From NCBI GenBank assembly GCA_015272195.1, contig JACYMC010000173.1, forward strand, positions 28,642 to 92,641: 64,000 nucleotides of DNA, given 5' to 3'. The number at the start of each line of letters is the position of its first letter. Position 1 is the stretch's first letter. Made by a program: the position numbers and the translations under genes. This stretch comes from Candidatus Sericytochromatia bacterium (lineage in GTDB: Bacteria > Cyanobacteriota > Sericytochromatia > UBA7694). Of this stretch, positions 12,438-44,410 are shown piece by piece. A model generated the notes under the pieces. It worked only from the letters and a program-made list of their open reading frames with translations, did no database searches and had not been told where the DNA came from.

Positions 12438-12736
12438 CGTGTGTCAACTCCTTGGTCCGGATGCCTTTTAAAGGGAATTATACCCAAGCCAGCGCCTTTA
12501 TGCCAGTCAGGGTGATTGCCATGATGCATATCAAGTTTTTATTTGATTGATCATAAGCGGGCTTTATGAGACGGATCAAAGACAAAGTCCGGGTGAAAGA
12601 CTATGCTGAACCTTAGAGTGCCCTTAGGTACTCTGAGGACCAAGCGAGTGCCTGTTGGTCTGTATAGACCGGCAGCAGCGTTTGTTTCGTGACAGCTCTG
12701 CGTGGAGAGGGCTTTATGCCCTCTCTTTTTTGTGTT

Positions 12737-13657
12737 TCAGCGGTTTTCACGCAGGGCTTTGAAGCGCTCGAGCAGTTCGCGTTCTTCATCTTTCAGGTTT
12801 TTAGAGATTTTGATTTCCAGAGTCGCCAGAATATCGCCGCGCAGATCCGGGTTTTTCAGATCGGGCAGGCCCTGGCCACGAATGCGGAAGGTCTGTCCTG
12901 CCTGGCTGCCGGGTGGGATTTTCATCTGTACATTGCCGCTGAGGGTCGGCACGGTTTTGGTGCAGCCCAGCAAAGCTTCATACTCCATCACGCTCAGACT
13001 GCAGCGCAGGCTGTTGCCGTCTACGCTGAAAACCGGGTGTGGCTTGATGCGAATCAGCAGCTGCAGATTGCCGCTGCTGACACGCACTTTGGAGCCATCT
13101 TTGACGCCGGGTGGAATTTTGACCTCAATGGTTTTCAGGGTTTCCTCGCGAATCTGAATGCGGCGTTTGGTCCCTTTGAGGGCTTCTTCCAGGGTGATTT
13201 CAGCGCTGTACTGAATTTCCTGGGGAGCCTGACGCTGCTGGCGAAAATGTCCCCCAAATCCGCCACCTGAATCGTGGGTGTGAGGACCGCGCTGATCCCA
13301 GAAGGCGTTGGCCTGCTCACCAAAAAAGGTTTCAAAGAAGTCCGAAAAATTCAGATCAAAAATGCGCGAGCCGGATTCGCCCCGGCTGTGATGACGGCTC
13401 TGACCGCCAAAGATATCACCCAGATCGCTGTACTGCTGCCAGTTGGCGCCCAGCTGATCGTAGCGACTGCGTTTGTCTTTGTCACTCAGCACTTCATAAG
13501 CTTCGTTGATTTCTTTGAAGCGCTTTTCGGCCACCGGATCATTGGGGTGGGTGTCCGGGTGATAATCCTTGGCCAGCTTGCGGTAGGCCTTGCGAATCTC
13601 CTGCTCAGAGGCGTCTTTATTGACGCCCAGGCTGGCATAATAATCGGTGTATTTCAT
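12737..13657 (-). CDS. CbpA-like DnaJ-class co-chaperone (J domain plus DnaJ C-terminal domains, no zinc-finger region)
   Basis: The J domain reads KYTDYYASLGV...IRKAYRKLAKDYHPD. A Gly-rich linker follows, then two C-terminal beta domains. No CxxCxGxG repeats are present. The start is chosen at MKYTDYY (ATG 13657); the ORF is open to 13696. Confidence 0.8.
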   Translation of the reverse strand: MKYTDYYASLGVNKDASEQEIRKAYRKLAKDYHPDTHPNDPVAEKRFKEINEAYEVLSDKDKRSRYDQLGANWQQYSDLGDIFGGQSRHHSRGESGSRIFDLNFSDFFETFFGEQANAFWDQRGPHTHDSGGGFGGHFRQQRQAPQEIQYSAEITLEEALKGTKRRIQIREETLKTIEVKIPPGVKDGSKVRVSSGNLQLLIRIKPHPVFSVDGNSLRCSLSVMEYEALLGCTKTVPTLSGNVQMKIPPGSQAGQTFRIRGQGLPDLKNPDLRGDILATLEIKISKNLKDEERELLERFKALRENR

Positions 13658-28307: not shown

Positions 28308-31300
28308 ATGAGCAAGTTAGCCAAGCGTTGCAGTGCCCTTTTTATCGCTTCCAGTCTGGGCGGTCTTTTATCTGCCTGTCCTTCTGATCCTCCGCCCAAC
28401 ACCAATGTTCGCCCCATTCCTTCGACACCGCCGGGCCTGATCACACCCACTCCGCCCCCAGGATCGGTGATCCAACCGCCTTCACCGGGTCCGGGTTTGC
28501 CGGGTGACCCTTCACCTTTACCAACCAGCACGCCGGGCACTTCAACGGGCCTGGCCATTGCCACAACGGGCTTGCCGACAGCCGTACTCAACTTTAACTA
28601 CAGTTTTGGCCTGCAGGCCAGCGGCGGCAGCGGCTCTTATAATTGGTCGATTGTATCGGGTAACCTGCCCCGTGAACTGGGTCTGGACCCCAATACAGGC
28701 CAGATTTTTGGCCGTCCTACCCAATCGGGTTCCTTTGAATTTGAGGTCCAGGCGCTCGACAATCAAAGCGGTCAGGTCGCGCGTCAGCGCCTGTTTATTC
28801 TGGTGGCTGACAGTGATGCAGGTGTTAATACCCTCTCTGTTCTGACCAGCACCCTGACTTCGGGCGTGGTGGATCGGGGTTACTCACAGCGTCTGGAAGT
28901 GACCGGTGGGGTAGCCCCTTTCAGCTGGACCATTTCTGCAGGGGCCCTGCCGGACGGCCTGAGCCTCAATACCAACACGGGTGAAATCTCCGGCACACCC
29001 ACCCTGCGTGGCGAAGAAACCTTTACCGTACGTGTAACCGACGGTCAGGGGCGCACCCAGACCCGTACCCTGAGTATTACCATTAACCGAACTGATTCAG
29101 ACATCACGGTGCTTACGGCCAGCCTGCCGCCCGGTGTCAGCGGTACCGCCTACAACCGCACAGCCTGTGGTCAGACTTTTTCAGGTCAGCTGAGCGCGAC
29201 GGGTGGTGACGGTGATTACCGCTGGAGCGTTTCACGCGGTAATCTGCCGCCAGGTCTGACCATGAACAGCAACGGCAGTATTACGGGCACGCCAACGCAG
29301 GTAGGCTCTTATACCTTTACGGTCCGTGTGGATGACGGCGAGGAAAACTCCGCCAGCAAAGTCTTTACGGCTGAAATCAGCCAGGTACTGATTCATAATT
29401 TTACCCCGGATTCCGGTGGTAAAGGGCTGCGCATGACCATTTTTGGCGAAGGCCTCAGCAGCATGGGCGGTGGCACCCAGGTGCGTTTCGGTGATGTGCA
29501 GTCTGTACCGGGCGCTGTGAACACTGTGGTTGACTGTCAGCAGTTTCAGACCAACATTCCTGAAAACGCCAAAACGGGTCTGATTACCCTGCGCAACGGC
29601 ACAACGGATCTGGGCAGCAGCAGCAAGCCTTTTGTGGCTGAGGATGTGGTGATCAACGAGGTCTTTGTCAGTCCCGATGGTTCAGGCAATCAGTTTGTGG
29701 AACTCAAAAACCGCAGCTCAGCCTCTGTCAGCATTGCCGGTTGGTACCTGCACTATACGGGTGAAGATGGCAGTCTGGTCAGTTTCCCTATTCCTCCTGA
29801 AACACCGCCTTTGGCTACCGGCGCGCTGACTGTGATCAACATCGGTCGCAATGGCGGAACTTCCGCGACAGATATTTATACGGGCACGGGCGTACAAGAG
29901 ATGCGCTTTGATCCGCTCAACGGTACGGCCGCCGATGCCCTGACCCGCGTGGCGCTCTGTAAAGACAACCCGGTCAATCCTGGCGAAGTCTGTGCCACTA
30001 GCGCCACGGATACCAAGTACCGTGACTACCTGCAGTTTGGGGGCGCCGCTGTAGATGGCCAGGACCTGGAAAATAACGCGGTCAGCGTGGGTATCTGGTC
30101 CGACGATGCGACCCTGAGTACCACAACACTGGTTGCGCCGCTGAGTGCCGTTTCAGACGATTTTGCCGATGATAACGCAGCCCAGTTTGGTGTGGCCGAA
30201 GCGGGCAACGATAAATCGGGTCTGCTTGTGGATGACGGCAATACAAAGTTTGCGGATTATACAGGTGAAGCTGTGCTTTATTACACCCCCGAGACCGGTA
30301 CCCTGGCTAACCAGCAGCAACGCATCCGCCGCACAGTCACAGGGGTAGGTACTGGTGTTCAGGAAGACCGTGTGCGTTTGAGTGCCCCGATTTTTGAAGC
30401 CAAAATTCAGGCCACCAATACGGGTGATGGCGCTGTGGGCAACGGCATTCTGGTGGATACGGTTGAAATGCTGGGGGCACCTCGCACCACGGCACCGACT
30501 TATGCAGGTGACCTGGTCAATGTGGTTGCCGGTACGGTCCTGCGCACGGTGCTGGGACTGCAGGCTGGCCCCAGAGTTGAGCTGAGTGAGGTGCCCTTTT
30601 CTCCGACAGTGGCTGGTAATGTCAGCGATGGTGTGAATGTCGGTGGCTTTGAAGTGGCTGCGGGCAGCGTCGACCTTGTGACGGGTGCGCAGACGGTCAA
30701 TGTGACCTATGTGCGCAATCCGGGTGATCTGAGCTCTACGCAAAACTTTTCTGTGGTGCGCACGGTCTCTGGACTGAATTCTGCCACCAATCGGATTGCC
30801 ATTACCCAGGCGCTGGCTTCTGCGGCGGTGAGTGCTGACAATGAAGGCGACGGTCTGCCTGGCAGCGAGATTGAACTGACGGCCACGACCAATTTTGCTA
30901 CGGGTGACCGGGCCTTGTTTAACGGTCTGAATTGTGCCAATGCAGCACCCTGTGAATTGACGCTGGGTGGTAATCTGGTGCGTCTGGCTTCTCCGCTGGC
31001 TCAGCTTCAGATTTCAAATGACAATACGGGCAACGGTGAAGAAAGCAGCCGTTTACAGGTAACGCTAGCAAATGCTGATCGTTTCCCGGTTGATGCCAGC
31101 GTGCGTATTAATGGTCAATTACGTCAGATTCAGCAAATAACTCCGTCTTTTGGCGGTACAGAACCTTTGTTTCAGCTGAGCGCGCCTTTTCAGATGACGC
31201 TTAACAATGGAACGCCGCAGGGTGACGGCACCTCAGGCCAGGGTATTGGTGTCACGAGCACTGATGGCTTCCTGGTCAACAACCGTGTCCGGCTGGGTAA

Positions 31301-32063
31301 TGAAGTGCGCCGGATTACGGCGATTGTACCGGGTACACCGCCCCGGATTGAGTTGGATAACCACTTGGGTAACATGACTGTGGCTACGGCCAATGCGGGC
31401 AATGGCTCATCAGCAGCGCCTCTGACCGTAGCTGACGCCACCGGGTTTAGCAGTGGCAATACCGTTCGCTTTGCCGGGTTGAATCAGGTGCGGACCATTA
31501 CTTCAGTGAATGGCAATAACCTGGTGCTCAGTGCACCGGTTTACCGTTCCCTGCAGACCACTGTGGCCCCCGGTAGTCCTGCCGCAAACCAGATTAACCT
31601 GGTCAGTGTGGCTGGCTTGACCGCTGGTGCTAATGGTGACTGGCTTCACTTTGCTGGTGATAATATCCGGCAGATTACGGGCATTGCAGGCAATCAGGTG
31701 ACACTTAATGCGGCTTTGCCGGCGATTCCTGCCGACAATAGCGAAGTGCGCGTTTTGCTCAATGGTGGCGAGCTGAACCGTGTTCCAACGATAGGTAACC
31801 TGACGCCTGTGGGTGTGGGTGGTGACGGTGCGGCGGTGCCTTATAATATCAATTTGGTGCCAACAGCCGGTACCTTTACCCTGGTGCCTTATGATGATGC
31901 GGGCGCCCGTCAGGCCCGCATCAGCCGCATTCCAACCAGTGGTTCGATTTATCTCGCACCCCGGGCGGGCTTTCTGCGCAAGTACCTCTCGATTAAGCTG
32001 ACGGGAGACAATCTGGCTGTGGGCGGTTACACCACCACAACCGCGCCTTCTCCCCGGCAGTAA
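28308..32063 (+). CDS. Giant (1251 aa) surface lipoprotein with a Pro-rich linker, four putative-Ig (He_PIG-like) repeats, an IPT/TIG domain and a lamin-tail (LTD) domain, followed by a ~750 aa Gly/Asn/Thr/Val-rich region
   Basis: The lipobox is LLSAC. Repeats read ...[34 protein letters not shown] / [33 protein letters not shown] / [32 protein letters not shown]. The IPT begins [10 protein letters not shown]. The LTD is [34 protein letters not shown]. Confidence 0.75.
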   Translation: [1251 protein letters not shown]

Positions 32064-32136: not shown

Positions 32137-32811
32137 TTAACCGCGTTCGCGGGGCTGTGGCCGAGCTGCCGGTTCTTTTTCGGCGTCGTTTTCAAAATCA
32201 ATAAAGGGAAAGGTGTTGATTTTACGGCCAATCATAATAAAGCTGAGGATATTGAGATAAGGGTTTTTCATCAGCTGGGACAATTGCCGGCTCAGGGTGG
32301 GGACTTGCTGGAGCTGGTAGACCACTTCGTCAATAAACTCAAAGCCACTTTGATCCAGCAGACGCCGCAGCGACTCGTTTGAAAAGTAGCGGATGTGGTT
32401 TTCACGCAGCGCACCGTCATCCTGATACGCCCAGCCTTCACTCATCAGATTGAGGATGGTTGAAATATGCCCGATATTATAGGTGACGGCATAAATCTGG
32501 CCCTGAGGCTGTAAAAACTTGCGCAGCGCCAGTAAGAGCCGGTCAGGATCCAGGGCCTGCTCCAGTGCGTGATACACAATCAGCAGATCATAACTTTTGG
32601 GCGGCAGGCTGAAATCCAGTTCAGGCTGTTCGCGACAGATATCCTGCCATTGTGTGCTTAGCTCATTGAGATAGACAAACTCTTTGCCTTCTGCTGCACA
32701 GAGTGCTGCCAGTTCAGGCAAAGGGTCTCCCAGGCAAAGAATTTTTTTCTGCTCGGGTTTGAGCATGGATTTCAGTTTGGCTTCCATATGCTGACGGTAT
32801 TGCGTATGCAT
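32137..32811 (-). CDS. Class I SAM-dependent methyltransferase, paralogous to the C-terminal domains of the two upstream rSAM-type proteins
   Basis: Motif I is KILCLGDPLPELAALCAAEG. Post-motif II is YDLLIVYHALEQALDPDRLLLALRKFLQPQGQIYAV, compare ILLSHALEKLRDPIALLQSLHAYLKPEGHILCI in the 645 aa protein. The start is taken at internal ATG 32811, 1 nt after the upstream stop. Confidence 0.65.
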   Translation of the reverse strand: MHTQYRQHMEAKLKSMLKPEQKKILCLGDPLPELAALCAAEGKEFVYLNELSTQWQDICREQPELDFSLPPKSYDLLIVYHALEQALDPDRLLLALRKFLQPQGQIYAVTYNIGHISTILNLMSEGWAYQDDGALRENHIRYFSNESLRRLLDQSGFEFIDEVVYQLQQVPTLSRQLSQLMKNPYLNILSFIMIGRKINTFPFIDFENDAEKEPAARPQPRERG

Positions 32812-32812
32812 T

Positions 32813-34768
32813 TTATAACTTCCTTGCAAGCAATTTGATTTCACTCGTATAGAGCAGGTGCTGGGGGACATGACGGGCACTGAAGTGTTCAATGTGCTGA
32901 CTCAGATTCTGCACCAGGGTGCGCATGCTCTCGATTTCCTCGATTGGGGCATGACCTATACTCAGTATTTCCATCTGACAGGCTTTGACCATATCTTCCA
33001 GCTGGGGCTGGGTGATCCAGCGCAGAACCGGGTAGTGTTGCTGGCTGTATTTGACGGGCCAGTCTAGAAATTTCAGCAGGAGGTAAATACACAGCGGATT
33101 CACCACGCTCAAAAAGACTTTACCCCCTGGCTTCAGGCTCTGACTGAGTCGCCGCAGTATTTCAAGTGGGCGACGCAAACCGTTCAGGCTGCCGGGCAGC
33201 AGCAGCATATCCAGTGGTTTTTGCGGCCATTCGCCGTGCAGATGGCCCTGACGAACGTGTAATTGCTGGATGTGATAGCCTTCCAGAAAGGGTTTACAGG
33301 CGGTCTCTGGTTGCAGGACCACTTCCAGCACCTGATCTTCGGGTGTAAAGTGTTCCCTGGCCAGGCTGCGCGCCACAACGGCGCGCCCCCAGTAGATAAT
33401 GTCCCCTTTATGTGGGCCCATAAAGCCCTGCTTTTCTTTGCCCAGGCGGGCAAAGGCATCATAAATTTCATGAAAGACCGCACCGCGCAGCTGGGTGTGG
33501 TAAAGGGGCAATTCCGGTGAAACATTTTCCCAGTCCATGGCATGCCATGGCATGCGCTCCAGAGTGGCGCTATCGGGCTTGTGCTTTTTGGCGTAAGCAT
33601 CCCACATGGGTGTGCCAGGAATCGGGGCCATCAGCGTGGTCTGCAGACGTTCAAACAGATGGTGGTGATCCTGCAGGTAAAGGTAAAACGCTGCCATTTG
33701 CTGGCGTGATGTCTGAGGTTCAGGGTTGAGAAAAACCAGGCCCAGGACATCAATCTGGATTTCTTTACAGGCCAGCAAAACCTGGCTCAGACGTTCCGGG
33801 CTGGCCTGTGACAACAGTTTGTTCTGGTGGCCAAAAGGCGCCAGCTGAAACATGAGTTTACGCACGTTCATGGCTTTGAGCTGTTTTAAAATGCCAGGTG
33901 TCAGCTGTTCCGGAGCGGCTGAAAGAATAAAAAAGATCTGCTGGTGTAATTTGCGCTCCACAATCAGGGCTTGAAGCTCTTTGAGGCGTTCAGGAAAAGC
34001 CAGTAACTGCTGATCGGCAATAAAAACCGGTGAAAAATACATGCGCTGGTGGGCTTCCAGGGGCAAAGACTGAAACAAAAAAGTATAATTGGCCACGATT
34101 TGCTCCAGCTGCTTCAGAAGGCTGACGCTGCTGAGCTGACGTGGCTTACGGGTCGGTGCGTAGGCCAGCGTTGTCAGCAGGTTATCCTGAATCCGGGCGG
34201 TCCGAATCACAGGGGCGCTGAAGCCCGGAAAGTCCAGCCAGAAACGGTAGTTGGGTGTGGGCAACTGGTTAAGGTCGGCAATCATCTGGCCCGGTGTGCC
34301 TGAATACATGCGCCCCTGACTCTGGTAGACAATGCCGGGGATCCGGCGGTAATGGGCACTTGTGGCATCGGGCTGTTTCAGATAGAGTTCCAGCAACTGC
34401 TTCAGCGGTACTTCCACTTCGCCAATAATACCAACGTCTACAGCGGGTGGCAGGCTTTGGGGCAGATATGAAATATGCGGGCCCGCCAGCCAGACAGGAA
34501 TATCCAGATAGGCTTTGATATTTTCGGCCATCGCGCTGGCCAGCTCAAAGCAGGCGCTGGTGGACCACAGCAGAATGACATCCGGGTGTTTGCTGGCCAG
34601 GCTTTTAAGCTCCAGCCCGATCACCGGGGAGACATTGTCGAAGGTCTGCTGAATAAACGGCACGATTTCCGATAGCGCGTGGGCGGCAAAATACTCCAGC
34701 CCACTGGCTTGTATGGCACCTTTTTTAAAGTGCTCTGGTTTAAAAAGAGGAAGCAGTCCTAGTTTCAT
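32813..34768 (-). CDS. Cysteine-less paralogue of the adjacent B12-binding radical-SAM/methyltransferase fusion (B12-like N-domain, degenerate rSAM core, MTase-like C-domain)
   Basis: The architecture is colinear with the 645 aa protein. The B12-domain region IGIIGEVEVPLKQLLELYLKQ matches IGVLGEGEETLFELMQLYQRN. The FTARGCPYKCTFCAS position reads IRTARIQDNLLTTLA, so no CxxxCxxC is present. Confidence 0.6.
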   Translation of the reverse strand: MKLGLLPLFKPEHFKKGAIQASGLEYFAAHALSEIVPFIQQTFDNVSPVIGLELKSLASKHPDVILLWSTSACFELASAMAENIKAYLDIPVWLAGPHISYLPQSLPPAVDVGIIGEVEVPLKQLLELYLKQPDATSAHYRRIPGIVYQSQGRMYSGTPGQMIADLNQLPTPNYRFWLDFPGFSAPVIRTARIQDNLLTTLAYAPTRKPRQLSSVSLLKQLEQIVANYTFLFQSLPLEAHQRMYFSPVFIADQQLLAFPERLKELQALIVERKLHQQIFFILSAAPEQLTPGILKQLKAMNVRKLMFQLAPFGHQNKLLSQASPERLSQVLLACKEIQIDVLGLVFLNPEPQTSRQQMAAFYLYLQDHHHLFERLQTTLMAPIPGTPMWDAYAKKHKPDSATLERMPWHAMDWENVSPELPLYHTQLRGAVFHEIYDAFARLGKEKQGFMGPHKGDIIYWGRAVVARSLAREHFTPEDQVLEVVLQPETACKPFLEGYHIQQLHVRQGHLHGEWPQKPLDMLLLPGSLNGLRRPLEILRRLSQSLKPGGKVFLSVVNPLCIYLLLKFLDWPVKYSQQHYPVLRWITQPQLEDMVKACQMEILSIGHAPIEEIESMRTLVQNLSQHIEHFSARHVPQHLLYTSEIKLLARKL

Positions 34769-34814
34769 GCCGGCATGATATCCGCAGGGGTCAGATCTTA
34801 AAAATTACCCTGTA

Positions 34815-36752
34815 CTATAGCACAGGGGCGGGCTTTTCTGAAGCCCGCAGTATGCGTCCGGCGCTTGTTGACGGGCTTTGTAAAACGCTGAGACAGGTCA
34901 CAGGAATTTCCTGCTGGCTCTGCCCCTCTGCATTCAGTAACTGCAAGGCCTGCTGCATTTTGTCTGACATCTGTACCGGGCTGGCGAGAAGCACCTGAGA
35001 CTGGCTTTCGTGCCAGCGGCTGCGTTTCAGCAGCGGCTGCAGACTCTGGTGACTGATAAAGCGCAGGGCATGGTGGTGGTTGACGCCAAAGGGGCTGGCT
35101 TCCCATTTGCCGCGCAGCAGTTGCTCCATCAGGGCCGGGTGACGGGCGTTATAGTAGATACACAGAATGTGTCCCTCGGGCTTTAGATACGCATGCAGGC
35201 TTTGAAGCAGGGCGATCGGATCGCGCAGTTTTTCGAGGGCGTGGCTGAGCAGAATCGTGGCGTATTGCTGTTTTGCTTCAATGGGCGTGAGTTCCGCTTT
35301 CCCTGAGGCAATGAGGATTTTGGTGACTTTCAGATCGGGCTGCAGATCGGCCAGGCAAAACGCTTCAAAGCCAATTTCGAGAACGGGTCCTTTGATGCTG
35401 ATATCCTCGAGCAGGGTTTTGTAGAGATGCTCAAAGTATTTGCGCTTGGTCAGCCAGGCATGCAGTTGCTGCTTACCGGCCTGCAGTGTGGTCTGAAAGA
35501 CCTGAAAGCGGTCGTAAATGCTTTCAAAGGTCTCTGGTCTCAGGTGCTGATTCATATACACAGAGCGTCCCCGCTCAAAACTGAGGTTAAGGGCATCCCA
35601 GTTTTCAAAGTTGGGGGGCAGAGCACCCAGATCCTGGGCTTGCTTCCAGAGTTCAGTGCCTGGAAAGGGCGTGGCATAGGCGATGGTGGGCTGGGCAAAA
35701 CGGTAGTGATTGCTTTGAATAAACCAGTAGGATCTGGCCATATCCTCTTCGGTTTCTTCGGGTACACCGATCATCATATTGCTGACCACGGGCAAATTAA
35801 AGCGCTCACAAATTTCCAGGGCCCGCTGGTTGTCACGGGCAGAGGTTTTGCCTTTGAGGGCGGTTAAAATGCGATCGCTGGCTGACTCCAGGCCAAAGCA
35901 AACCACCAGCCCGTTCATTTGCACGATCATCCGGGCAATTTCTTCATCAAAGACGCTGGCACGTGCGTTCAGCGAAAAGCCCACTTTTTTGTGCAGGCCT
36001 TTGGCCCGGATGGCATCTACAATGGCCCGCATGCGCTTTTTATTCAAGGGGAAGAGGTCATCATTGATGGGAATAATGCTTTGATCCGGAAAATGGCTGA
36101 CGATGTACTCGATTTCCTGAATCACTCGCTCCACTGAGTGGTAGCGGGTGCGCTGCCAAAAGCGGGTAGAGGCGCAAAAGGTGCACTTGTACGGGCAGCC
36201 CCGTGCGGTAAAAATGGGTTGCTGCCACTGGGTGTCTTTCAGCAATAGCTCCCGATTGGGCATGGGGATGCTGTCCATGTCTTCGATCCAGGCGCGTGGG
36301 GCAGTAATGATACGTTCGCCTTTGTGCCAGAATACCAGGCCATTGATTTTGCTCAGGTTTTCGGGGGTGGCTTCATTGCGCTGGTACAGCTGCATCAGCT
36401 CAAACAGGGTTTCTTCGCCTTCGCCCAGCACGCCAATGTCTACTTCGGGGGGCAGGGTTTCGGGGGCTGCTGAAATATGTTCACCGCCAACGATCAGGGG
36501 CACGCTGGCATCCAGTTGTTTAAAGTGCCGGGCGTGGTGAATGACGTCCTCAAAGGTTTCGGTAAACGAAGACAGACCAATGATATCCGGGCTCTGACGC
36601 AGCAGCGCGTCACGGTTATCGACTTCGAGAATGGTGTCATGAAAGTTGAGGTGGGTTTCAAGATAGGCCGACAGATAGCCGAACGACAGCGGCGCGATAA
36701 AACCCCGATCTTCGTAGTCTTCGCCTTTGAGATACATCATTCCCAGTCGCAT
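34815..36752 (-). CDS. B12-binding radical SAM protein (class B) fused to a C-terminal class I methyltransferase-like domain
   Basis: The N-terminal cobalamin-binding-type domain reads PLIVGGEHISAAPETLPPEVDIGVLGEGEET. The radical-SAM cluster motif is TARGCPYKCTFCAS. The C-terminal ~200 aa are homologous to the stand-alone MTase. A GGAGG SD lies 6 nt upstream. Confidence 0.8.
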   Translation of the reverse strand: MRLGMMYLKGEDYEDRGFIAPLSFGYLSAYLETHLNFHDTILEVDNRDALLRQSPDIIGLSSFTETFEDVIHHARHFKQLDASVPLIVGGEHISAAPETLPPEVDIGVLGEGEETLFELMQLYQRNEATPENLSKINGLVFWHKGERIITAPRAWIEDMDSIPMPNRELLLKDTQWQQPIFTARGCPYKCTFCASTRFWQRTRYHSVERVIQEIEYIVSHFPDQSIIPINDDLFPLNKKRMRAIVDAIRAKGLHKKVGFSLNARASVFDEEIARMIVQMNGLVVCFGLESASDRILTALKGKTSARDNQRALEICERFNLPVVSNMMIGVPEETEEDMARSYWFIQSNHYRFAQPTIAYATPFPGTELWKQAQDLGALPPNFENWDALNLSFERGRSVYMNQHLRPETFESIYDRFQVFQTTLQAGKQQLHAWLTKRKYFEHLYKTLLEDISIKGPVLEIGFEAFCLADLQPDLKVTKILIASGKAELTPIEAKQQYATILLSHALEKLRDPIALLQSLHAYLKPEGHILCIYYNARHPALMEQLLRGKWEASPFGVNHHHALRFISHQSLQPLLKRSRWHESQSQVLLASPVQMSDKMQQALQLLNAEGQSQQEIPVTCLSVLQSPSTSAGRILRASEKPAPVL

Positions 36753-36816: not shown

Positions 36817-37431
36817 CTAAAGATCCGGTAAAATATTTTTGAGCGGATCAATGCGGATGGCTGACATAGACAATTTGGGATCCAGACCAAACTCTGCCCG
36901 CCGCTCAACATCGTCCGCTTTCAGGCTGACTGTTACGGGGACATTTTTTTGTTTTGGAAACACCAGCTCCTGACTTTGATTGGCCTCCAGCCGGTCAATG
37001 ACTTTTTTAAGTTGACCATATTGAATCACAATGTTTTCGATGGTTTCATCCGATTGATTCACAATAAAAATTGAAGCGCTGTTCTGGCTATGTGGAAAGT
37101 AGCTGTATTGTATAAAGAAGAAGATGCCTGTCAGATTTAACAGCAAAATGGCAGCAGCTAGCGTTAGGGGTTTAGTGAAGCTGTGCTGGGGCCTTTTGGC
37201 TTCAGGCAGCTCGCTGATACGGTTCATTTGTTGATTGAACTGGTTCAGCAAATGCAGGGCAAAAAACCCCCCCAAAACGCTGACTCCCAAACCAAGCCAG
37301 GCCAGCCAGAGATTGGTGCTCAGTTTTAAGCCGAGCCAGAGAAGTATGGGAGCAAAAACAAAAACAAGGTTTTTTCGTTTGAAGGGTTCTGGTTTGAATG
37401 GGTCTGTAGATGTGCTCATGCTAACCGACAA
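36817..37431 (-). CDS. Small membrane protein (3 TM plus a soluble C-terminal domain), hypothetical
   Basis: The TM segments are LVFVFAPILLWLGLKL, LAWLGLGVSVLGGFFALHLL and LTLAAAILLLNLTGIFFFI. It sits between the pilin-like genes and the rSAM genes on the same strand. Its GC is lower than its neighbours. Confidence 0.5.
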   Translation of the reverse strand: MSVSMSTSTDPFKPEPFKRKNLVFVFAPILLWLGLKLSTNLWLAWLGLGVSVLGGFFALHLLNQFNQQMNRISELPEAKRPQHSFTKPLTLAAAILLLNLTGIFFFIQYSYFPHSQNSASIFIVNQSDETIENIVIQYGQLKKVIDRLEANQSQELVFPKQKNVPVTVSLKADDVERRAEFGLDPKLSMSAIRIDPLKNILPDL

Positions 37432-37455
37432 AGATTTGATGTGATGAAAAGGGCT

Positions 37456-38583
37456 TTACAGGTCTCTGGCGTAAGCGGTGTGCAGGTAGGTGATGTCCAC
37501 AAAGCTGTTATGGCTGCTTTGACCCACGGCTGTTGTGCGAATCAGAATCGAGCGGCCGCTGCTGTGGCCCACAATGGCTGTTTCAAATCCCCTCGGAAAG
37601 GTTCCCAGGCTCAGGGCGGGCGTGGTATCGCTGGCCGGTATCACGTCCTGCGCGTTGGGGGGGCATGAGGGCACGGTGGGGTTATAAAAGCCAGGCACGG
37701 GGTTTCTGAGATTCATGGTCTGGCCGCCGTTTCCACTTTGTGTTTGATTGTAGGCAATGCTGTAGCGGGTATCAGATGAGCTGGGGAAGCGAAACACACT
37801 GGTGTGGCGTGCCTTGGGAATCTGAAAAGAAGCCCCTGCGCTGCTCAGACTGGTGCCAGCCCCTGCAACATTATAAAATGCGGTATTGGCATTGGCTGAA
37901 GACCGTTCCCAGGCAAAGTTAATGTTGTTGCTAATCAAGTCGCTGCGAATCGTGGACGCACTGCCCGGGAACAAGGTCAGCAGGCGTTCAAGTTGTTCTG
38001 CAGAGACGAAGCGCACACTTCGCCACTCAATCAAACGCTGACCCTGAAACACATTGTTCCCCTGATAAATGTCGTAGTCTGTATCATCGCTGATATAAAT
38101 ATATTTAAAGACATAGACATCAACCCGGGCGTCTATGCCGCCGCTGAAATCTCTGAAGGTGTCATCCAGTTCAGCGTACAGCAGCGCATTGCCCACACTG
38201 TTGGCCCGAAAAAAGTTCTCTGGCGACACAGCGCAGGTTTTTTCAATAGCCAGTGAACCAGACACCCGAATCGTTGGCAAGGTTGAGTCAGGGATAATGG
38301 CGGGTGAATCGCTCAGGCTGATTTTATTGCGATAGGCATTCCCCAGGGTGTCGTTGCCAAAGACCGCTTTGGCCTGGTTGAGGCCTTTGCTGAGGCGAAT
38401 GCTGCCTGACTGGAGCTCACTTTTAACCACAGCATACAGCTGTGTCACGTTATGTGAGCGCCAGCTGGTTTGCAGAAAGCTTACGCAGAGGGCGACCAGC
38501 GTAACCAGAATGGCCATGGCAATCATCAGCTCGACCAGTGAAAAACCTTTGGACCTTTTGAGGGTGTTTATGGTTTTACTCAT
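37456..38583 (-). CDS. Type IV pilin-like (minor pilin/pseudopilin) protein, 375 aa
   Basis: The prepilin N-terminal cleavage/methylation motif is KGFSLVELMIAMAILVTLVAL (Gly-1, Phe+1, Glu+5). Its start overlaps the upstream stop (ATGA). Confidence 0.8.
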   Translation of the reverse strand: MSKTINTLKRSKGFSLVELMIAMAILVTLVALCVSFLQTSWRSHNVTQLYAVVKSELQSGSIRLSKGLNQAKAVFGNDTLGNAYRNKISLSDSPAIIPDSTLPTIRVSGSLAIEKTCAVSPENFFRANSVGNALLYAELDDTFRDFSGGIDARVDVYVFKYIYISDDTDYDIYQGNNVFQGQRLIEWRSVRFVSAEQLERLLTLFPGSASTIRSDLISNNINFAWERSSANANTAFYNVAGAGTSLSSAGASFQIPKARHTSVFRFPSSSDTRYSIAYNQTQSGNGGQTMNLRNPVPGFYNPTVPSCPPNAQDVIPASDTTPALSLGTFPRGFETAIVGHSSGRSILIRTTAVGQSSHNSFVDITYLHTAYARDL

Positions 38584-41500
38584 CGGTTGATGGTCACCAG
38601 CACATCGTGATAGCCATAGCCCATTTCAGGAAAGCCTGCTCTGTAAACCTCTGCGCGCAGCAGATAGTTACCTTGCGGCAAGGTGCTGACGTCCCAGTTT
38701 ACAGTCGGTTGGGCTTTTTCAGACGCATCCAGTGTGTAGGGGCTAAACAGGCTTTTGGCTGGGTTGTACTGGTCTACCATTTCACGCGGCACTTCAGTAC
38801 CGTCATCGGCATAGCGCCAGGTGCGGCCGTTGTCGACGGAATACTTCAGGTTATAGACCAGGGGCGTGGTGTCCCACCAGTTGTCTGGGTAAGCCTGGGA
38901 GTATTTTTCGTTATCCCAGCGCTTCCAGGCCGTGGTGAAGTTGACCTCAATGCTGGCGGGATCGTCATAAGCGCGTTGTGCAGTGGGTGAGGTGATCTCA
39001 ATACGCGGTAACTGAACCGTACGGCCCGGGGCATCCCCTGGTATCGAAAGGTCACCCGCATCCATAAAGGTCTGCAGCGTACCGGCCTGTGACATGCGGG
39101 CCATCAGCATGACCCCTGTACCCGAGGTATTGGCAAAGCCATTGAGTAAGACATAGCCTGCCATTTCGTCACGCCCGCTGCGGGTCATTTTGACCATGCC
39201 GCTGGCAGTATTGGAGCTGCTGGAGTGGCGGTAATAGGTGTTTTGTCTGTTGGCCGTGCTGTCTACTGTGCCTGCACCGCTGTTAACAAAGCCCAGGGTA
39301 TTGCGCAGGCTGCTGATTTCAGGGTCGCCGTAACCACCAATCCCGCCGGTTGCGCCAGAGTCGATGGTAAAAGGGCGATTGGACGTGACGGTGTCAGGCA
39401 GGGTCAGGTTAAAGGCCCGGACCAGCAGGCGGCCCGCTTCGCCGGCGTCACCGTTTAAGACCGCATTGCCACCGGTGAAGCTGTGATTCACACGGCGATT
39501 GCCGCTGCCCGTGGGGTTACCGTTCATAAAACCACCTGAGCCAGTATGTTTCATGCGTCGCCGCCGGGTGCCGCTCAGCGCATAGGGGCCATTATCGACC
39601 GGTGATCTGAAGAAGCGGCGGTTATTCGTGGGCTCTGCGCTGGAGCGGTTGTGCGTTCCACTGACATATGAATGGTTGGGTAGGTTGCCGTTATCCACCC
39701 AGAACTGATAATCCTGATCCGGAAACAGCTCCTTTTGGGTGGGTTGAGCCCGCCAGCGCTCGTTGCCGCCGCCGGGAGTCGTATCGTCGGTGCTCAGGAT
39801 CGTGCGCCGTTCATCCCCTGTAATCTCGTTGATCAGGTTGTTGCTATTCGCCACGCTGCTGCCATCGGGACTTTGGCTCCAGGGCTGGCGACGAATCTGA
39901 AAGACTGCGTTGGTGCCGTCTGTACCCAGCTCCCCGCCAAGGGCGTGGTAATAATTGCTGTAACCGGAAACACTGTTGTAAATAGCGTTAGAGCGCAACA
40001 GGCCATGGTTAAAGAACTGAAAGTACCAGTTGAGATCCGTATCAATGCCTGAGAAGCTGGGGCCGCTGTTGCGGCTGAAGCCTTCTACACCTTTGTTGTT
40101 GGGGCCGCCCCAGTGGCGGCTGTAGCGATGGCGGACCTTGACATCGAGGTAAGGGGTATACAAAGCATCGCCGAGGTACTGGGCCTGCTCCACCTGGGGG
40201 ACCAAAAGGCTGTTGGCCGGCGGTGTGGTGGCTTCGAGAGTGAAAATATGCCCCATATAAGTGTAGGTTCGCGATACGTTATACAGGTGCGGGCGCATAT
40301 CCCGCTCATTTTCGTTGACGGGTGTTGCAGGGTTATTGGGCACATGCACATCACCGTCTCCCCAGACACCATCACAAAGCTCACGAATGGTGAGCGGACA
40401 GCCCAGCTCGTCGCTGTCGGGGGCGTTGCGATAAGGCGCTTCCCGGCGGGAAGCTGCCGGCGCGTCAGGATCAGCATCATTATGAACGATGCGGGTTTCA
40501 AGGGTCAGCTGCTGGCTGTTAAAATTGCTGCCCAGCACGCTGGCGCCTGTGTCAAGTGCCACGCGCCAGCGCGCGGTGTTTTTATAGCGGTCGCTATTGC
40601 CCTCTCTCAGATCGCGATCGTCAAAAGAGTCTGTGCCGTCATCTGCAACGGGTGCGGGAATGTATTCCAGTCCGTACAAGCGGCGGTCCTTGCGCAAGCC
40701 CGTGTTGCTGGGGCCGATAGGATGGCGTGTAGGCGTATCGTACAGCATCACCCGATAGCCACGCTGGGGAGCTCCCATCATCGTTTCGTCAATGGCTTCA
40801 ACGCTGAAGTCGCGATGACGCGTGACCGTCACCCCTGCAGGGACGGAGAGTGCTTGATTGGTTTGAATAACGGCTGTGGGTCCTGAGATGGCATTCACCT
40901 CGTTAATTCTGACGATCTGCTCATTGGCTCCGCCGGGATCGAGCACGATCAGCTGACCTCTGAGGTCGTCTCTGGCATCTGTGAGGCTGGCGCCCGCCAG
41001 GTCAGAGCTCCAGGTATTCAGCGTCAGGGTGGTGCCTGTTGCGGGCGCGGACGTCTGGCCCAGGATGCGGGCGGGGTAAAGGCAATCTGTTTCAGTCGCA
41101 CCAGGGGTGCAGCTCGGATCGTGGTTATCGGTAATCCGGCTGACGTTGGTACGCCCCTCATGCCGGCTGCTGTCGGTGCTCCAGCGCCGGTAGCGCACGT
41201 TTTCGCCGCCCACAATGCGTTCAATTTTGAGGGGGTTATTGGTAGACGTAAAGTCTGCGGGCGTAAAATTGGGGTAACGCAGGTAGCCGGGTCGGGTGAA
41301 GTCGTTATAGTTAGGCCCCTGACCGATGGTGGGAATAAAGAGTGAGGTTTTGGGAATCGAGTGGTCTTCTGGACTAACGGAGCTGCTGTAGCCTGTGTCG
41401 CCAGGGTTGCTCAGACGGTTTTCGCCAGGGTTAAGCTGCTCGTATGCATAGACACGCCAGGCGACTTCTGCGCCATTGTCGTAACGCAGATTTTCTGGAT

Positions 41501-42908
41501 GACTGACCACGCGTTTGTTTTGCAGTGAAACGTAGTTGGGGTCTATTTCGGTATCGCCGTTGCTTTGTTTGGCGGCAGGGAGGCTGGCCACATCGGGTGC
41601 GGGCGTACCGTTCAGTTTGAGAGCGATCTGATCGGGCTGCTTGGCCGGGTCAGAGTAGTTGCGGATCGGGGGCAAAGGCAGCAATTCGCCGTGCAGATTG
41701 ATGACAATCGCGTTGCGATAGCGCATTTCACCGCCCTGCATGGGGTCACCGTTATCGTTTAAGGGTGTGTTGAGATCTTCCAGGAAGTTGACCAGTGAGG
41801 GGTTGCGCGCAAAGAAGGGATCTGTAGTGGACAGACGTTTTTCCATGGCCAGTTGTTCGGGCCAGCGCATGACGTGGTTAAACTGGTCGGCCATGGCGTA
41901 GGGGCGGTAACCTGTAGCGTGTCCGGGCACATTAAATCCATTCACGTCATAGTGAGGGTGGTTGTTATTGACATGGGGAAAACGGGTGGTGTCGTCAGTA
42001 CGCACCCGTCCGCGAATGGCTGCCAGGGGGTAGTTCTCGTTGATGCTGCTATGGTTGATGCGCCCAGGATACAGGTAGATCCAGGGTAAAGGCTGATCAT
42101 TGGCTTCGTCAGCATCGTTGATGTAGGGCATATAATAAGGGTCGCGTCCATATCCCAAACGTGTGACAAAATGGCGGCGATAACGTAAGCCAGGGTTGCG
42201 TTGCTCCAAATCGGTCAGGGTCCGCTCAAAACTGGGGCGTAGATCCGCCAGGTCAACCCACCAGCTGGGGGCGTTTTCCATGGCAAGAATAAAGACATCA
42301 ACCACCTGGGTTGGGGGGGCGGCGGTCAGGTTGGTTTTGAGGATACCAGCCACAGATGCCAGGGGTTTGGGCAGGTCTTCGTTACTGTTGGGATCATAAC
42401 CAACCGGCAAATCGTTATTGTTGGGATCGGCATACCAGACAGACACTTTGACAAAGCGGGCAAACTCGTCGTTAGGTACCGGGTTGACCTGAACCTGGCG
42501 TACAAACTTCCACTTACCGCTGTTGCGCTGGTTGGCGCTGATCGGATCCCCCGGATCGTCAATCGATCTGGAAACCAGACCGTCAGGGCTATCGACCTCT
42601 TTGCGTTCGGTACTCAGAACATTGTTAAAGCGGGAACCGTCACTGAAGTTCTGCAGTTTGCTGATATCCGTTTCACGGTTGGCCTGAACAAAGGAACGCA
42701 GCTCCTCGAACATTTGTGTGGCTTTCTGAGCAGCAAAGGTGCGATCATTAACGCTGGTGGTGCGCTGCATGACCGTGGTTTGGACCGCCACAGCGCCGCC
42801 CACAGCCACCGAGAGCATGGCACTTGCCACCAGGACTTCCATCAAAGAAAAACCGCGTTGATTGCGGGTTTTGGTCCCTTTTTTCTTGTTTCGCTGGATC
42901 ATACTCAC
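38580..42908 (-). CDS. Giant (1442 aa) pilin-fused protein; candidate pilus tip adhesin/minor pilin
   Basis: Its N-terminus QRGFSLMEVLVASAMLSVAVGGAV is a class III prepilin signal with Glu+5. The body is long and Asn/Asp/Gly/Pro-rich with no further TM. ATGA overlaps lie at both ends (42905-42908 and 38580-38583). Confidence 0.75.
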   Translation of the reverse strand: MSMIQRNKKKGTKTRNQRGFSLMEVLVASAMLSVAVGGAVAVQTTVMQRTTSVNDRTFAAQKATQMFEELRSFVQANRETDISKLQNFSDGSRFNNVLSTERKEVDSPDGLVSRSIDDPGDPISANQRNSGKWKFVRQVQVNPVPNDEFARFVKVSVWYADPNNNDLPVGYDPNSNEDLPKPLASVAGILKTNLTAAPPTQVVDVFILAMENAPSWWVDLADLRPSFERTLTDLEQRNPGLRYRRHFVTRLGYGRDPYYMPYINDADEANDQPLPWIYLYPGRINHSSINENYPLAAIRGRVRTDDTTRFPHVNNNHPHYDVNGFNVPGHATGYRPYAMADQFNHVMRWPEQLAMEKRLSTTDPFFARNPSLVNFLEDLNTPLNDNGDPMQGGEMRYRNAIVINLHGELLPLPPIRNYSDPAKQPDQIALKLNGTPAPDVASLPAAKQSNGDTEIDPNYVSLQNKRVVSHPENLRYDNGAEVAWRVYAYEQLNPGENRLSNPGDTGYSSSVSPEDHSIPKTSLFIPTIGQGPNYNDFTRPGYLRYPNFTPADFTSTNNPLKIERIVGGENVRYRRWSTDSSRHEGRTNVSRITDNHDPSCTPGATETDCLYPARILGQTSAPATGTTLTLNTWSSDLAGASLTDARDDLRGQLIVLDPGGANEQIVRINEVNAISGPTAVIQTNQALSVPAGVTVTRHRDFSVEAIDETMMGAPQRGYRVMLYDTPTRHPIGPSNTGLRKDRRLYGLEYIPAPVADDGTDSFDDRDLREGNSDRYKNTARWRVALDTGASVLGSNFNSQQLTLETRIVHNDADPDAPAASRREAPYRNAPDSDELGCPLTIRELCDGVWGDGDVHVPNNPATPVNENERDMRPHLYNVSRTYTYMGHIFTLEATTPPANSLLVPQVEQAQYLGDALYTPYLDVKVRHRYSRHWGGPNNKGVEGFSRNSGPSFSGIDTDLNWYFQFFNHGLLRSNAIYNSVSGYSNYYHALGGELGTDGTNAVFQIRRQPWSQSPDGSSVANSNNLINEITGDERRTILSTDDTTPGGGNERWRAQPTQKELFPDQDYQFWVDNGNLPNHSYVSGTHNRSSAEPTNNRRFFRSPVDNGPYALSGTRRRRMKHTGSGGFMNGNPTGSGNRRVNHSFTGGNAVLNGDAGEAGRLLVRAFNLTLPDTVTSNRPFTIDSGATGGIGGYGDPEISSLRNTLGFVNSGAGTVDSTANRQNTYYRHSSSSNTASGMVKMTRSGRDEMAGYVLLNGFANTSGTGVMLMARMSQAGTLQTFMDAGDLSIPGDAPGRTVQLPRIEITSPTAQRAYDDPASIEVNFTTAWKRWDNEKYSQAYPDNWWDTTPLVYNLKYSVDNGRTWRYADDGTEVPREMVDQYNPAKSLFSPYTLDASEKAQPTVNWDVSTLPQGNYLLRAEVYRAGFPEMGYGYHDVLVTINR

Positions 42909-44131
42909 TCCACCTCAATGATTGAATAGGAAAGGTTGTTTTCGCGGTATAGACCCAGTCTGTTCTGGGTGTTGCGCACAATATTGTGATTGTATTCGAT
43001 ACTGGTATTGCCGGACGTGGCATTACAGTTCATGCGACCGGTGATAACGGCCCCACTGAGGGAGTTATCGCGCCCAACAGTCAGTTGGCCAGTAACATAA
43101 ATGATGCCGGTGAACAGGGAGTTGCTGTTGTTTTTCAACGTCAGGTTGCCATTGACATAAAGCAAGCCCTCTCCTGCCAGAGGCTTTTCTGGTGTAAAGG
43201 TAAAATTGCCCTGCAGATAGGTGATCGAAAAGGGCAAGCGTTCGGGCAGGCTGTTGACATTGGTGTAAACACGGTCTGATAAGCCTCTCAGCTCATTGTC
43301 TGTCACCCCAAAAAAGACTTCGGTTGTGAGCTGTTCTGGGTTTGACTCCCGCATGGCAAGGCCGCCGGGTGTAATTAAGGTTGCTGAAGGCAAAGAACCA
43401 CCTGAAAAATAATTGATGGCGCTGGTTGCATCATCGTCACCAATCAGATGGCAGCGGCTGCCAAAAGTATGGCCGCCACTGGATGCAGTCACGCTGACGG
43501 GCGAAGTGGGGGCGCGCATGGCAATACGCACAATTTCGCTTTTAACAGCAGCACGGCTTAAAATGCGGTTGGGCGCGTCTTCAGGGCCGGTATTAAAGCT
43601 GTAGGAATCACTGTTTTTGGTGAAGTCGTTGCGTATATAAACAATGCCTTCGCTGAAAATTGACCATACCGTGCCGTTGGGAATGCTGCTGCCGGCTGTT
43701 TTGGCACGTTGCACGCTGACATCCCGAACCAGCTGTGTACTGGCTGTGCTGCAGTCGCTGCGGGGAACAATATAGCGTCCATAAATATTGCCGGAGATCT
43801 GATAATCCCGCACAATACCCTGGCTCTCATCGATCGTTTCAGAAACCAGCTCGTCATCACTGTAAACCGGAGCAAAACCTTCATCTGCACAGCTGGAAGA
43901 AGCAGGAGCCTGAACGGGTTGTTGATCCTGATTCTTGAACCAGCCAATGGCATCCTGAAGACCGGCTTGCGCCACGTTACTGGCCTGGGCGTGGTCTGTA
44001 AATTCTTTGCTGGTGTCTTTGAGTGATTGAATGACCAGCCGCGTTGAGGCTGCACCCAGCAAAAGCATAACGGTTGTTAACATGAGCACGGTTGCGATGG
44101 CCAGGCCTGATTCATGATGGTGCTTGCGCAT
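42905..44131 (-). CDS. PilX-like minor pilin-family protein (PilX N-terminal domain)
   Basis: The N-terminus is MRKHHHESGLAIATVLMLTTVMLLLGAASTRLVIQSLKD. A GGGGAAAGAG SD lies upstream of ATG 44131; the ORF is open to 44197. Confidence 0.65.
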   Translation of the reverse strand: MRKHHHESGLAIATVLMLTTVMLLLGAASTRLVIQSLKDTSKEFTDHAQASNVAQAGLQDAIGWFKNQDQQPVQAPASSSCADEGFAPVYSDDELVSETIDESQGIVRDYQISGNIYGRYIVPRSDCSTASTQLVRDVSVQRAKTAGSSIPNGTVWSIFSEGIVYIRNDFTKNSDSYSFNTGPEDAPNRILSRAAVKSEIVRIAMRAPTSPVSVTASSGGHTFGSRCHLIGDDDATSAINYFSGGSLPSATLITPGGLAMRESNPEQLTTEVFFGVTDNELRGLSDRVYTNVNSLPERLPFSITYLQGNFTFTPEKPLAGEGLLYVNGNLTLKNNSNSLFTGIIYVTGQLTVGRDNSLSGAVITGRMNCNATSGNTSIEYNHNIVRNTQNRLGLYRENNLSYSIIEVE

Positions 44132-44410
44132 GCATCTCTTTCCCCACATCGTCTGTGCGCGTTCACCTGCTGACGAAAGCGTGTGGGAAAAGGCCATGCA
44201 GGAAGCCTGGCATTCATGATTTAGCTATCGCGTGCACAGGATAAGCAGGTGGGTTCCTGCGACCTGTTGCGATAATCATCGAACTGTCCTGAGAGAGAAA
44301 GACAGCCGGGTTCCACTTACACTAACGACATCTGAGAGAACAAACACATGGATTCGTTTGATGATCTTATTATAGGCGCAGGGTTTAAGTTTTGTAAATA
44401 GGTGTTCAGC

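Follow-up and report, generated by a model that had tools for sequence, protein, structure and literature searches.

Analysis of a 64,000-nucleotide stretch of the genome of a Candidatus Sericytochromatia bacterium (contig JACYMC010000173.1, positions 28,642 to 92,641; hereafter, the window) showed that an intact B12-type radical-S-adenosylmethionine (radical-SAM) fusion protein is encoded next to a colinear paralogue that has lost the radical-SAM ligands and, apparently, the SAM motif, yet is under strong purifying selection. Three consecutive minus-strand open reading frames (ORFs), termed A, B, and C, span positions 32137-36752. Gene A (34815..36752; 645 amino acids [aa]) encodes the intact fusion of a B12-binding domain, a radical-SAM domain, and a methyltransferase-like domain, and its product is 100% identical to a protein from a "Candidatus Sericytochromatia bacterium" metagenome-assembled genome. 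Gene B (32813..34768; 651 aa) encodes the paralogue, which has neither the cluster motif nor the putative GGE-type SAM motif, and gene C (32137..32811) encodes a stand-alone methyltransferase-like protein, most likely of 224 aa. We tentatively propose that the three proteins are subunits of one B12-type radical-SAM system in which only A carries out radical catalysis, with B and C as its non-catalytic partners. The kind of enzyme itself is known; the novelty is that an intact fusion of this type is paired with a paralogue that lacks the cluster but is conserved, and with the tail domain as a separate protein.

B is an old paralogue of A that has apparently lost both cofactor sites of the radical-SAM barrel

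An initial annotation of this region had described the two large proteins as colinear, and BLASTP alignment bears this out, with 24% identity over 625 residues (E = 1e-31). The three ORFs also lie where it had placed them, and all the peptides it quoted are present: TARGCPYKCTFCAS at residue 182 of A, IRTARIQDNLLTTLA at residue 188 of B, YDLLIVYHALEQALDPDRLL at residue 74 of C (numbering from the ATG at 32811), and ILLSHALEKLRDPIALL at residue 500 of A. A profile of the B family matched ordinary B12 radical-SAM proteins over positions 32-450 with E values of 1e-30 to ~1e-45, which means that B is a genuine descendant of B12 radical-SAM enzymes. In a neighbor-joining tree, the fusion proteins that bear the C-terminal tail were split from the non-fusion outgroups with 100/100 support, and B was monophyletic (100/100) inside this fusion clade. 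B therefore arose once, after the tail fusion, and is no recent copy of the neighboring A. An origin by recent tandem duplication of A is not supported, B being a long, old branch in this analysis by neighbor joining only.

The cluster motif CxxxCxxC occurs once in A (C186/C190/C193) and, by regular-expression search, in neither B nor C. In A, the ligand codons, for C186-P-Y-K-C190-T-F-C193, are at 36174..36197 on the minus strand. The motif was also missing from each of the 27 B-family clusters, made up of 21 clusters at 90% identity, five deeper representatives, and the B of the window, so the earlier description of B as having no CxxxCxxC anywhere holds for the whole family. Its further description of B as "cysteine-less" does not, since five cysteines are present (residues 73, 334, 491, 560, and 597) and only the cluster motif is missing. 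An alternative Cys triad appears to be ruled out by column conservation, as the 27 sequences have no three conserved Cys columns; the best are C334 (22/27), C218 (19/27, with Leu in the window B), and C73 (17/27). The SAM motif appears to be lost as well: the FGLESASD sequence of A, in which FGLES was called the GGE-type motif from its position and not from a ligand-bound structure, aligns with LAPFGHQ in B. This second loss had been missed by the initial annotation. With both cofactor sites of the barrel apparently gone, B would be incapable of the radical step.

Traces of the lost site can still be recognized. Deep members of the B family keep a T(S/A)RG sequence ahead of the lost cluster motif, which shows a stepwise decay of the motif. 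In a column-by-column alignment to A, the former cluster site of B corresponds to aa 188-210, IRTARIQDNLLTTLAYAPTRKPR (34139..34207, minus strand), and is rich in conserved Arg and Lys. Five of these residues (R189, R192, R207, K208, and R210) are invariant in a 22-sequence B alignment; in the set of 27 B sequences, R192 and R210 each remain in 26 or more.

Pfam found no Radical_SAM (PF04055) match in B, and the other two domains scored below threshold (B12-binding, 20.5 bits versus a cut-off of 32.1; Methyltransf_23, 25.2 versus 27). The methyltransferase-like C-terminal domain of B is at ~aa 478-650 (32819..33337, minus strand). The fold is retained, however. AF2 models of the A and B monomers were obtained with a predicted local distance difference test score (pLDDT) of 92.6 and a predicted template modeling score (pTM) of 0.91 for A, and 89.7 and 0.84, respectively, for B. 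In a fold search, the top four solved matches for both models were AprD4, CysS, MgmA, and TsrM, followed by RimO, TokK, OxsB, and MiaB and then by class-I methyltransferases. This structure match includes the B12-binding-domain fold of B, despite its 20.5-bit Pfam score.

B is under the same purifying selection as A

The ratio of nonsynonymous to synonymous substitution rates (dN/dS) was computed for the window genes against two related loci, L009 and L010, with the flanking and compared genes at a synonymous divergence (dS) of 0.56-1.1. Against L009 and L010, respectively, dN/dS was 0.071 and 0.071 for A, 0.073 and 0.055 for B, 0.066 and 0.032 for C, and 0.038 and 0.025 for RuvB; ftsZ, compared with L010 only, gave 0.045. 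B is thus under strong purifying selection, the same as A, and this argues that a non-radical role of B is real. The suggestion of the initial annotation that B is a probable non-catalytic or scaffold paralogue is supported in part, with the radical-SAM ligands and apparently the SAM motif lost but dN/dS at 0.055-0.073.

A different order is seen at longer range. Over class-wide distances, C has changed least, A more, and B most: dN to loci L001 and L002 was 0.21-0.22 for C, 0.28-0.30 for A, and 0.52-0.58 for B, and the long-range identities were 57-89%, 46-88%, and 36-94%, respectively. One could take this fast evolution, together with the loss of the catalytic motifs, as signs of a decaying duplicate, a pseudogene in progress, and in one locus (L020, "Cyanobacteria bacterium UBA7694," positions 1-1586) B is indeed split into two overlapping ORFs, by either a frameshift or an assembly error. 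Yet all 27 clusters have a full-length B (651-672 aa), including those at 36% identity or less, its 22-sequence alignment has 71 invariant columns, and its fold is predicted with confidence. These data and the low dN/dS rule the pseudogene reading out, and we give it hardly any credence.

A retains the features of a cobalamin-type radical-SAM enzyme

Three Pfam domains were matched in A: B12-binding (4.6e-12; aa 20-118), Radical_SAM (2.2e-17; aa 182-340), and Methyltransf_23 (6.2e-11; aa 492-577). The first, a B12-binding-type Rossmann domain encoded at 36399..36695 (minus strand), scored 46.3 bits against a cut-off of 32.1. A carries the cluster ligands of the radical-SAM superfamily (PF04055) and an N-terminal Rossmann cobalamin-binding domain, and the radical-SAM core has the partial TIM-barrel fold. 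The CxxxCxxC motif was kept in 61 of 62 aligned A-type fusion sequences and was invariant in a 70-sequence A alignment from which the exception, P0035, was left out. P0035 reads CPYRYTYC, with Tyr for the middle cluster Cys; this change may reflect either an error in sequencing or another case, independent of B, in which the cluster was lost. G287 and E289, in FGLESASD, were invariant among the same 70 sequences.

The cobalamin-type domain of A has a Gly-Gly (G89-G90) on beta4 and a Gly-Glu (G112-E113) at the start of the next helix, and G89, G90, H92, E111, G112, and E113 were invariant across the 70 sequences. These are the cobalamin motifs of cobalamin radical-SAM enzymes (PMC9204698). A DxHxxG-like cobalamin motif, for which the initial annotation had suggested looking, was found in none of the three proteins by motif search. 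Such an absence is expected from the solved structures of cobalamin radical-SAM enzymes, in which cobalamin is bound in the His-off state (PMC9204698). With its [4Fe-4S] ligands, putative SAM motif, and Gly-Gly and Gly-Glu motifs all in place, A would be the only radical-capable subunit of the three.

No curated NCBIfam model came near its cut-off for A, and C had no NCBIfam match at all. The best model for A was that of BchE, the anaerobic Mg-protoporphyrin IX monomethyl ester cyclase (TIGR02026), at 120.3 bits against a cut-off of 481, and a BchE identity of A was rejected on this score. The JGI label "BchE" on several A homologues appears to be an automatic over-annotation.

The methyltransferase-like domains have no canonical SAM-binding loop

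The C-terminal domain of A (~aa 455-625; 34878..35390, minus strand), that of B, and protein C have the seven-stranded Rossmann-like methyltransferase fold. C aligned with the tail of A over 84 residues (32% identity; E = 5e-12) and with B at an E value of 0.017 only. The earlier claim that C aligns with both tails thus stands for A, and for B it depends mainly on A as an intermediate and on profile and fold evidence, because the pairwise match is weak. The 251-aa length first given for C also needs revision. The frame is open from a TTG at 32892, which yields 251 aa and overlaps B by 80 nucleotides (nt), but the C orthologues are 220-237 aa long and begin at the equivalent of M28, the ATG at 32811, 1 nt past the B stop. 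C is therefore most likely a 224-aa protein.

The initial annotation described the tail as a second, SAM-dependent methyltransferase-like domain, but a second SAM-dependent methyltransferase activity is not supported. In the corresponding rival to our proposal, A, B, and C would be separate active methyltransferases of one pathway, with A performing radical C-methylation and the class-I domains ordinary SAM-dependent methylation. The Methyltransf_23 matches of A (42.7 bits) and C (39.5 bits; 6.1e-10) are above the cut-off, and the hh(D/E)hG motif survives in part (as LEIG in A and as LCLG in C). Most features of the domains point the other way, however. First, the glycine-rich motif I of class-I methyltransferases, GxGxG, is absent from all three proteins; the site reads LEIGFEAF in A, LEVVLQPE in B, and LCLGDPLP in C, and the loop is likewise degenerate in every branch of the fusion clade that was inspected. 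Second, the Pfam matches of A, B, and C are confined to the C-terminal half of the profile (positions 77-162 of 164, with starts at 77-78), so that the first half, which holds motif I, is unmatched in each. Third, the stretch from beta1 to beta4 has only ~40 residues in the models of A and B, with its flanking helices nearly gone; the domain of C is more complete, but the acidic residue that ends beta2 is not invariant in the C family. Finally, B also matches the folds of the anamorsin N-domain and of SpnF, which have a methyltransferase fold but are not known to be methyltransferases. We consider the three-methyltransferase alternative improbable.

The tails are most likely no methyltransferases, and the fold probably serves as a cap or interaction domain. 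This reading comes from the degenerate loop and the partial Pfam match and from the solved B12 radical-SAM enzymes, in which the C-terminal domains are variable and bind substrate (PMC9204698). Beyond the methyltransferase fold, the C family has an invariant N199-x-F-P-F-I-D-(F-E) peptide (window 32137-32250), followed by a variable tail rich in Lys, Glu, and Pro. The peptide looks like a short docking motif.

The A-B-C order recurs across Sericytochromatia and Blackallbacteria

Family hidden Markov models (HMMs) were used to survey 21 loci: the window, ten found by exact protein look-up, and ten from GTDB, one genome per species. All ten GTDB loci belong to Sericytochromatia, Blackallbacteria, or "Cyanobacteria bacterium UBA7694," and the A-B-C order recurs in genomes of Sericytochromatia and Blackallbacteria. 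C follows B in all 17 loci that reach past B. The junction is tight, with the B stop and the C start at most 5 nt apart or overlapping in 12 of the 17; the gap is 27-53 nt in L012, L013, L014, L016, and L018, which form the Blackallbacteria-type group. Wherever a locus reaches beyond the start of B, the gene directly upstream is A, with L004 and L019 as the two exceptions. From these sequences the triad is apparently lineage specific and a core trait of Sericytochromatia, and it seems to mark the Sericytochromatia and Blackallbacteria lineages.

Some loci depart from the common pattern. L008 (2242-10674) carries a tandem array of three A-type genes, all intact, behind which B and C are each present once. 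A-like fusions with 33-38% identity stand alone, without a neighboring B or C, and one of these is in the genome of L001. In L004 and L019, the last bases of C are shared with the gene of an FNR-like FAD/NAD(P) oxidoreductase (12648-13364 and 12654-13364, respectively), after which comes an endonuclease I gene. The window has a homologue of the FNR-like gene (3822-4544; E = 2e-51) that is 29 kb from the triad, and the reductase was for this reason rejected as a general partner.

The initial annotation had also noted a third B12-type radical-SAM gene, which is real: it lies at 63168-64000 on the plus strand, is cut by the window end, has a B12-binding match (8.6e-9), and carries NRGCPFSCTYCDWG. 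By the family HMMs it is outside the A family, and it is 26 kb from the triad on the opposite strand. Further B12 radical-SAM genes occur near the triad in L002 and in the Blackallbacteria-type loci, where they adjoin genes for a Glyco_trans_1_2/TPR protein and a zinc-ribbon protein.

A conserved element lies between A and B

The 46-nt spacer between A and B has a hairpin that holds the A stop codon, CCCTGTGC-TATA-GTACAGGG (34808..34827, minus strand). This region (window 34768-34830; L009 and L010 9940-10001) falls in an aligned stretch of ~120 nt that is 93% identical in the window, L009, and L010, and the spacer is thus far more conserved than synonymous sites, the dS of the flanking genes being 0.56-1.1. 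A plain terminator was considered and is probably not what the hairpin is, as its invariant stem is followed by a T-run that is not conserved. L001, with a gap of only 12 nt, lacks the element. The start of B (ATGA or GTGA) is overlapped by a mini-ORF of three codons (ATG CCG GCx TGA). The spacer element may serve translational or RNA-level control.

Prepilin-type genes precede the triad

On the minus strand of the window, the genes mraY-murD-ftsW-murG-murC-murB-ftsQ-ftsZ are followed by three pilin-type genes (37456..44197), with N_methyl and PilV/ComGE-type matches, that encode a PilX-like protein (430 aa), a PilV-like prepilin-type protein (1442 aa), and a further prepilin-type protein (375 aa). 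The second is a giant "minor pilin" (38580-42908) with a prepilin-type N-terminal motif, a PilV-like start, and no other domain match; its conserved counterparts elsewhere in Sericytochromatia have 1454-1584 aa. The pseudopilin gene is separated from A by a 204-aa ORF (36817..37431, minus strand) with no Pfam or NCBIfam match, which has a 199-aa counterpart in L009 and is absent from L001 and L002. After ftsZ, a strong terminator-like hairpin (44449-44421; 13 bp and a T-run) is followed on the same strand by a promoter-like site (44398-44369), which precedes the PilX-like gene and agrees with the sigma-70 consensus at 11 of 12 positions. Both are consensus matches only. The site, the best promoter-like one in the region, is likely, on this match, to be the start of a transcription unit that runs through A-B-C.

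Genes with a prepilin motif are directly upstream of A in 10 loci, including Blackallbacteria-type loci, and they are on the same strand in two lineages whose flanks are otherwise different. The content of this cassette is swapped between near-identical relatives (window 36817-44197 versus L010 4224-7939) with the flanks conserved, although the B proteins of L010 and the window are 94% identical. The window and L009 have the PilX-like, 1442-aa PilV-like, and 375-aa pseudopilin genes and the 204-aa ORF, whereas L010 has genes for a 666-aa DUF4900 protein and for 127-, 152- (N_methyl), and 283-aa proteins. On the other side, a 1251-aa surface protein with He_PIG and lamin-tail domains by Pfam (28308..32063, plus strand) is convergent with C, as is a homologue in nine loci.

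A proposed three-subunit system and the evidence that weighs on it

In the proposed system, A would bind the [4Fe-4S] cluster and SAM, possibly also cobalamin, and perform the radical step. B would have arisen once from a tail-bearing ancestor, losing the cluster and the SAM motif and keeping the three-domain fold, and would have been retained as a non-catalytic partner that, for example, binds or presents the substrate or stabilizes A. C would be a separate copy of the tail domain that is produced alongside B, probably by co-translation. B and C would associate with A, and the contacts might be made by the methyltransferase-like domains together with the FPFID tail, which is invariant in C. 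For the heteromeric complex that the initial annotation suggested, the evidence is indirect, namely the conserved A-B-C order and the spacing of 5 nt or less between the B stop and the C start in most loci. As to the substrate, the neighborhood hints weakly at type IV pilus or cell-surface proteins. A more specific form, in which B and C recruit a type IV pilus subunit or a giant surface adhesin and A installs a radical, possibly cobalamin-dependent, modification, is in our view unlikely; in a variant of it, B would still bind a corrinoid and shuttle methyl groups to A.

Several observations weigh against this scheme. First, L004 and L019 carry B and C with no A next to them. These genomes may encode A at another site, or else B and C work alone, and so B-C may not depend strictly on A. 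Second, G96, H98, I99, S100, G116, E117, and E119 of the B cobalamin domain are conserved in the 22- and 27-sequence sets. Since the cobalamin signature is partly kept, with GG and GEGE retained in deep members, B may yet bind a corrinoid and have a chemical role, as far as residue conservation can tell. Third, the best structural match of A is AprD4, which has a B12-like domain yet is not known to use cobalamin. A B12-binding-type domain is therefore no proof of cobalamin dependence, and A may or may not use cobalamin. Fourth, the only solved protein found by sequence with the C profile (3cc8; E = 4.6e-15) has a motif that is also non-canonical, GCSSG, so the degenerate loop is no proof of lost SAM binding. 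Finally, L008 has no pilin genes upstream. Because of this and because the cassette varies in L010, the gene order is weakly suggestive of a link between the triad and the pilus or cell surface.

The first two observations also bear on a rival that we consider doubtful, though the strongest of those weighed here. B with C would be an enzyme or carrier of its own, non-radical chemistry, and A a pathway neighbor instead of an obligate partner; B could be, for instance, a corrinoid protein that takes and gives methyl groups, with the Arg/Lys patch at the old cluster site binding an anionic ligand. The B-C loci without an adjacent A, with the FNR-like gene overlapping the end of C, would fit this, as would the invariant or nearly invariant residues of the cobalamin domain (G96, H98, I99, S100, G116, and E117), the five invariant Arg and Lys residues of the patch, and a selection on B equal to that on A. 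On the other hand, the window-type B has A95-G96 and V118-E119 where A has Gly-Gly and Gly-Glu, its Pfam B12-binding score is under the cut-off, and the FNR-like gene is 29 kb away in the window, so that this linkage is limited to one lineage. Moreover, most B-invariant residues (e.g., R210, D252, and R261) are invariant in A too and hence are not B specific.

If the three-subunit proposal is true, B would be a clear case of a radical-SAM pseudoenzyme that serves as a dedicated partner. Enzymes of the B12 type are usually viewed as self-contained, whereas here a cluster-less full-length paralogue is kept beside the active one across a bacterial class. Sericytochromatia, which are non-photosynthetic, and Blackallbacteria are uncultured and related to cyanobacteria, with next to nothing known of their cell biology, and the repeated place of the triad behind minor-pilin genes hints at a cell-surface modification not yet described. 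Were the unlikely recruitment form correct, it would be an undescribed modification of pilins or surface proteins specific to a sister lineage of cyanobacteria. The triad is a defined three-gene expression target, all three proteins having relatives of solved structure, and the labels "BchE" and "methyltransferase domain-containing protein" are misleading for them.

Comparison with known systems

The literature searched, with most subscription journals outside its coverage, described neither the A/B/C family nor any B12 radical-SAM paralogue that lacks the cluster. The closest known enzymes are MgmA (9ccb), CysS (9n1b), TsrM (6wte), TokK (7kdx), and OxsB (5ul2), which are like A in having an N-terminal Rossmann cobalamin-type domain, a radical-SAM barrel, and a variable C terminus. 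The class B enzymes and A have the CxxxCxxC motif, the beta4 Gly-Gly, and the Gly-Glu in common. However, the identity between A and the solved class B enzymes is only 15-23%, the curated NCBIfam models fall far below cut-off, and the C-terminal domain here is a class-I methyltransferase fold, unlike that of MgmA, CysS, TsrM, TokK, and OxsB. To our knowledge, none of these five works with a cluster-less paralogue. The radical-SAM diol dehydratase AprD4 (6fd2), with 10-19% identity, also differs in having no methyltransferase-like tail.

For C, the comparison is with BCE_1332 (3cc8), an uncharacterized putative methyltransferase of Bacillus cereus solved by structural genomics. The lid signature NvxHIS...LL.G.W.Y...G.L...HIRFF is common to this protein and the C family, but its motif I reads LDIGCSSG versus ILCVGDxLP in C, and it is neither fused to nor known to be paired with a radical-SAM protein.

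As a concept, an impaired paralogue kept as a partner is known elsewhere. METTL3-METTL14 and the eukaryotic Dph1-Dph2 are active/inactive paralogue pairs. Dph2 keeps its Fe-S cluster, whereas B is without any ligand set. Intrafamily methyltransferase hetero-oligomers are the subject of a review (PMC10908127). The likeness of the A-B pair to METTL3-METTL14 and Dph1-Dph2 is one of concept, with no homology claimed, and the partnership here is a proposal: as in those pairs, an impaired paralogue would be kept for the sake of its partner.

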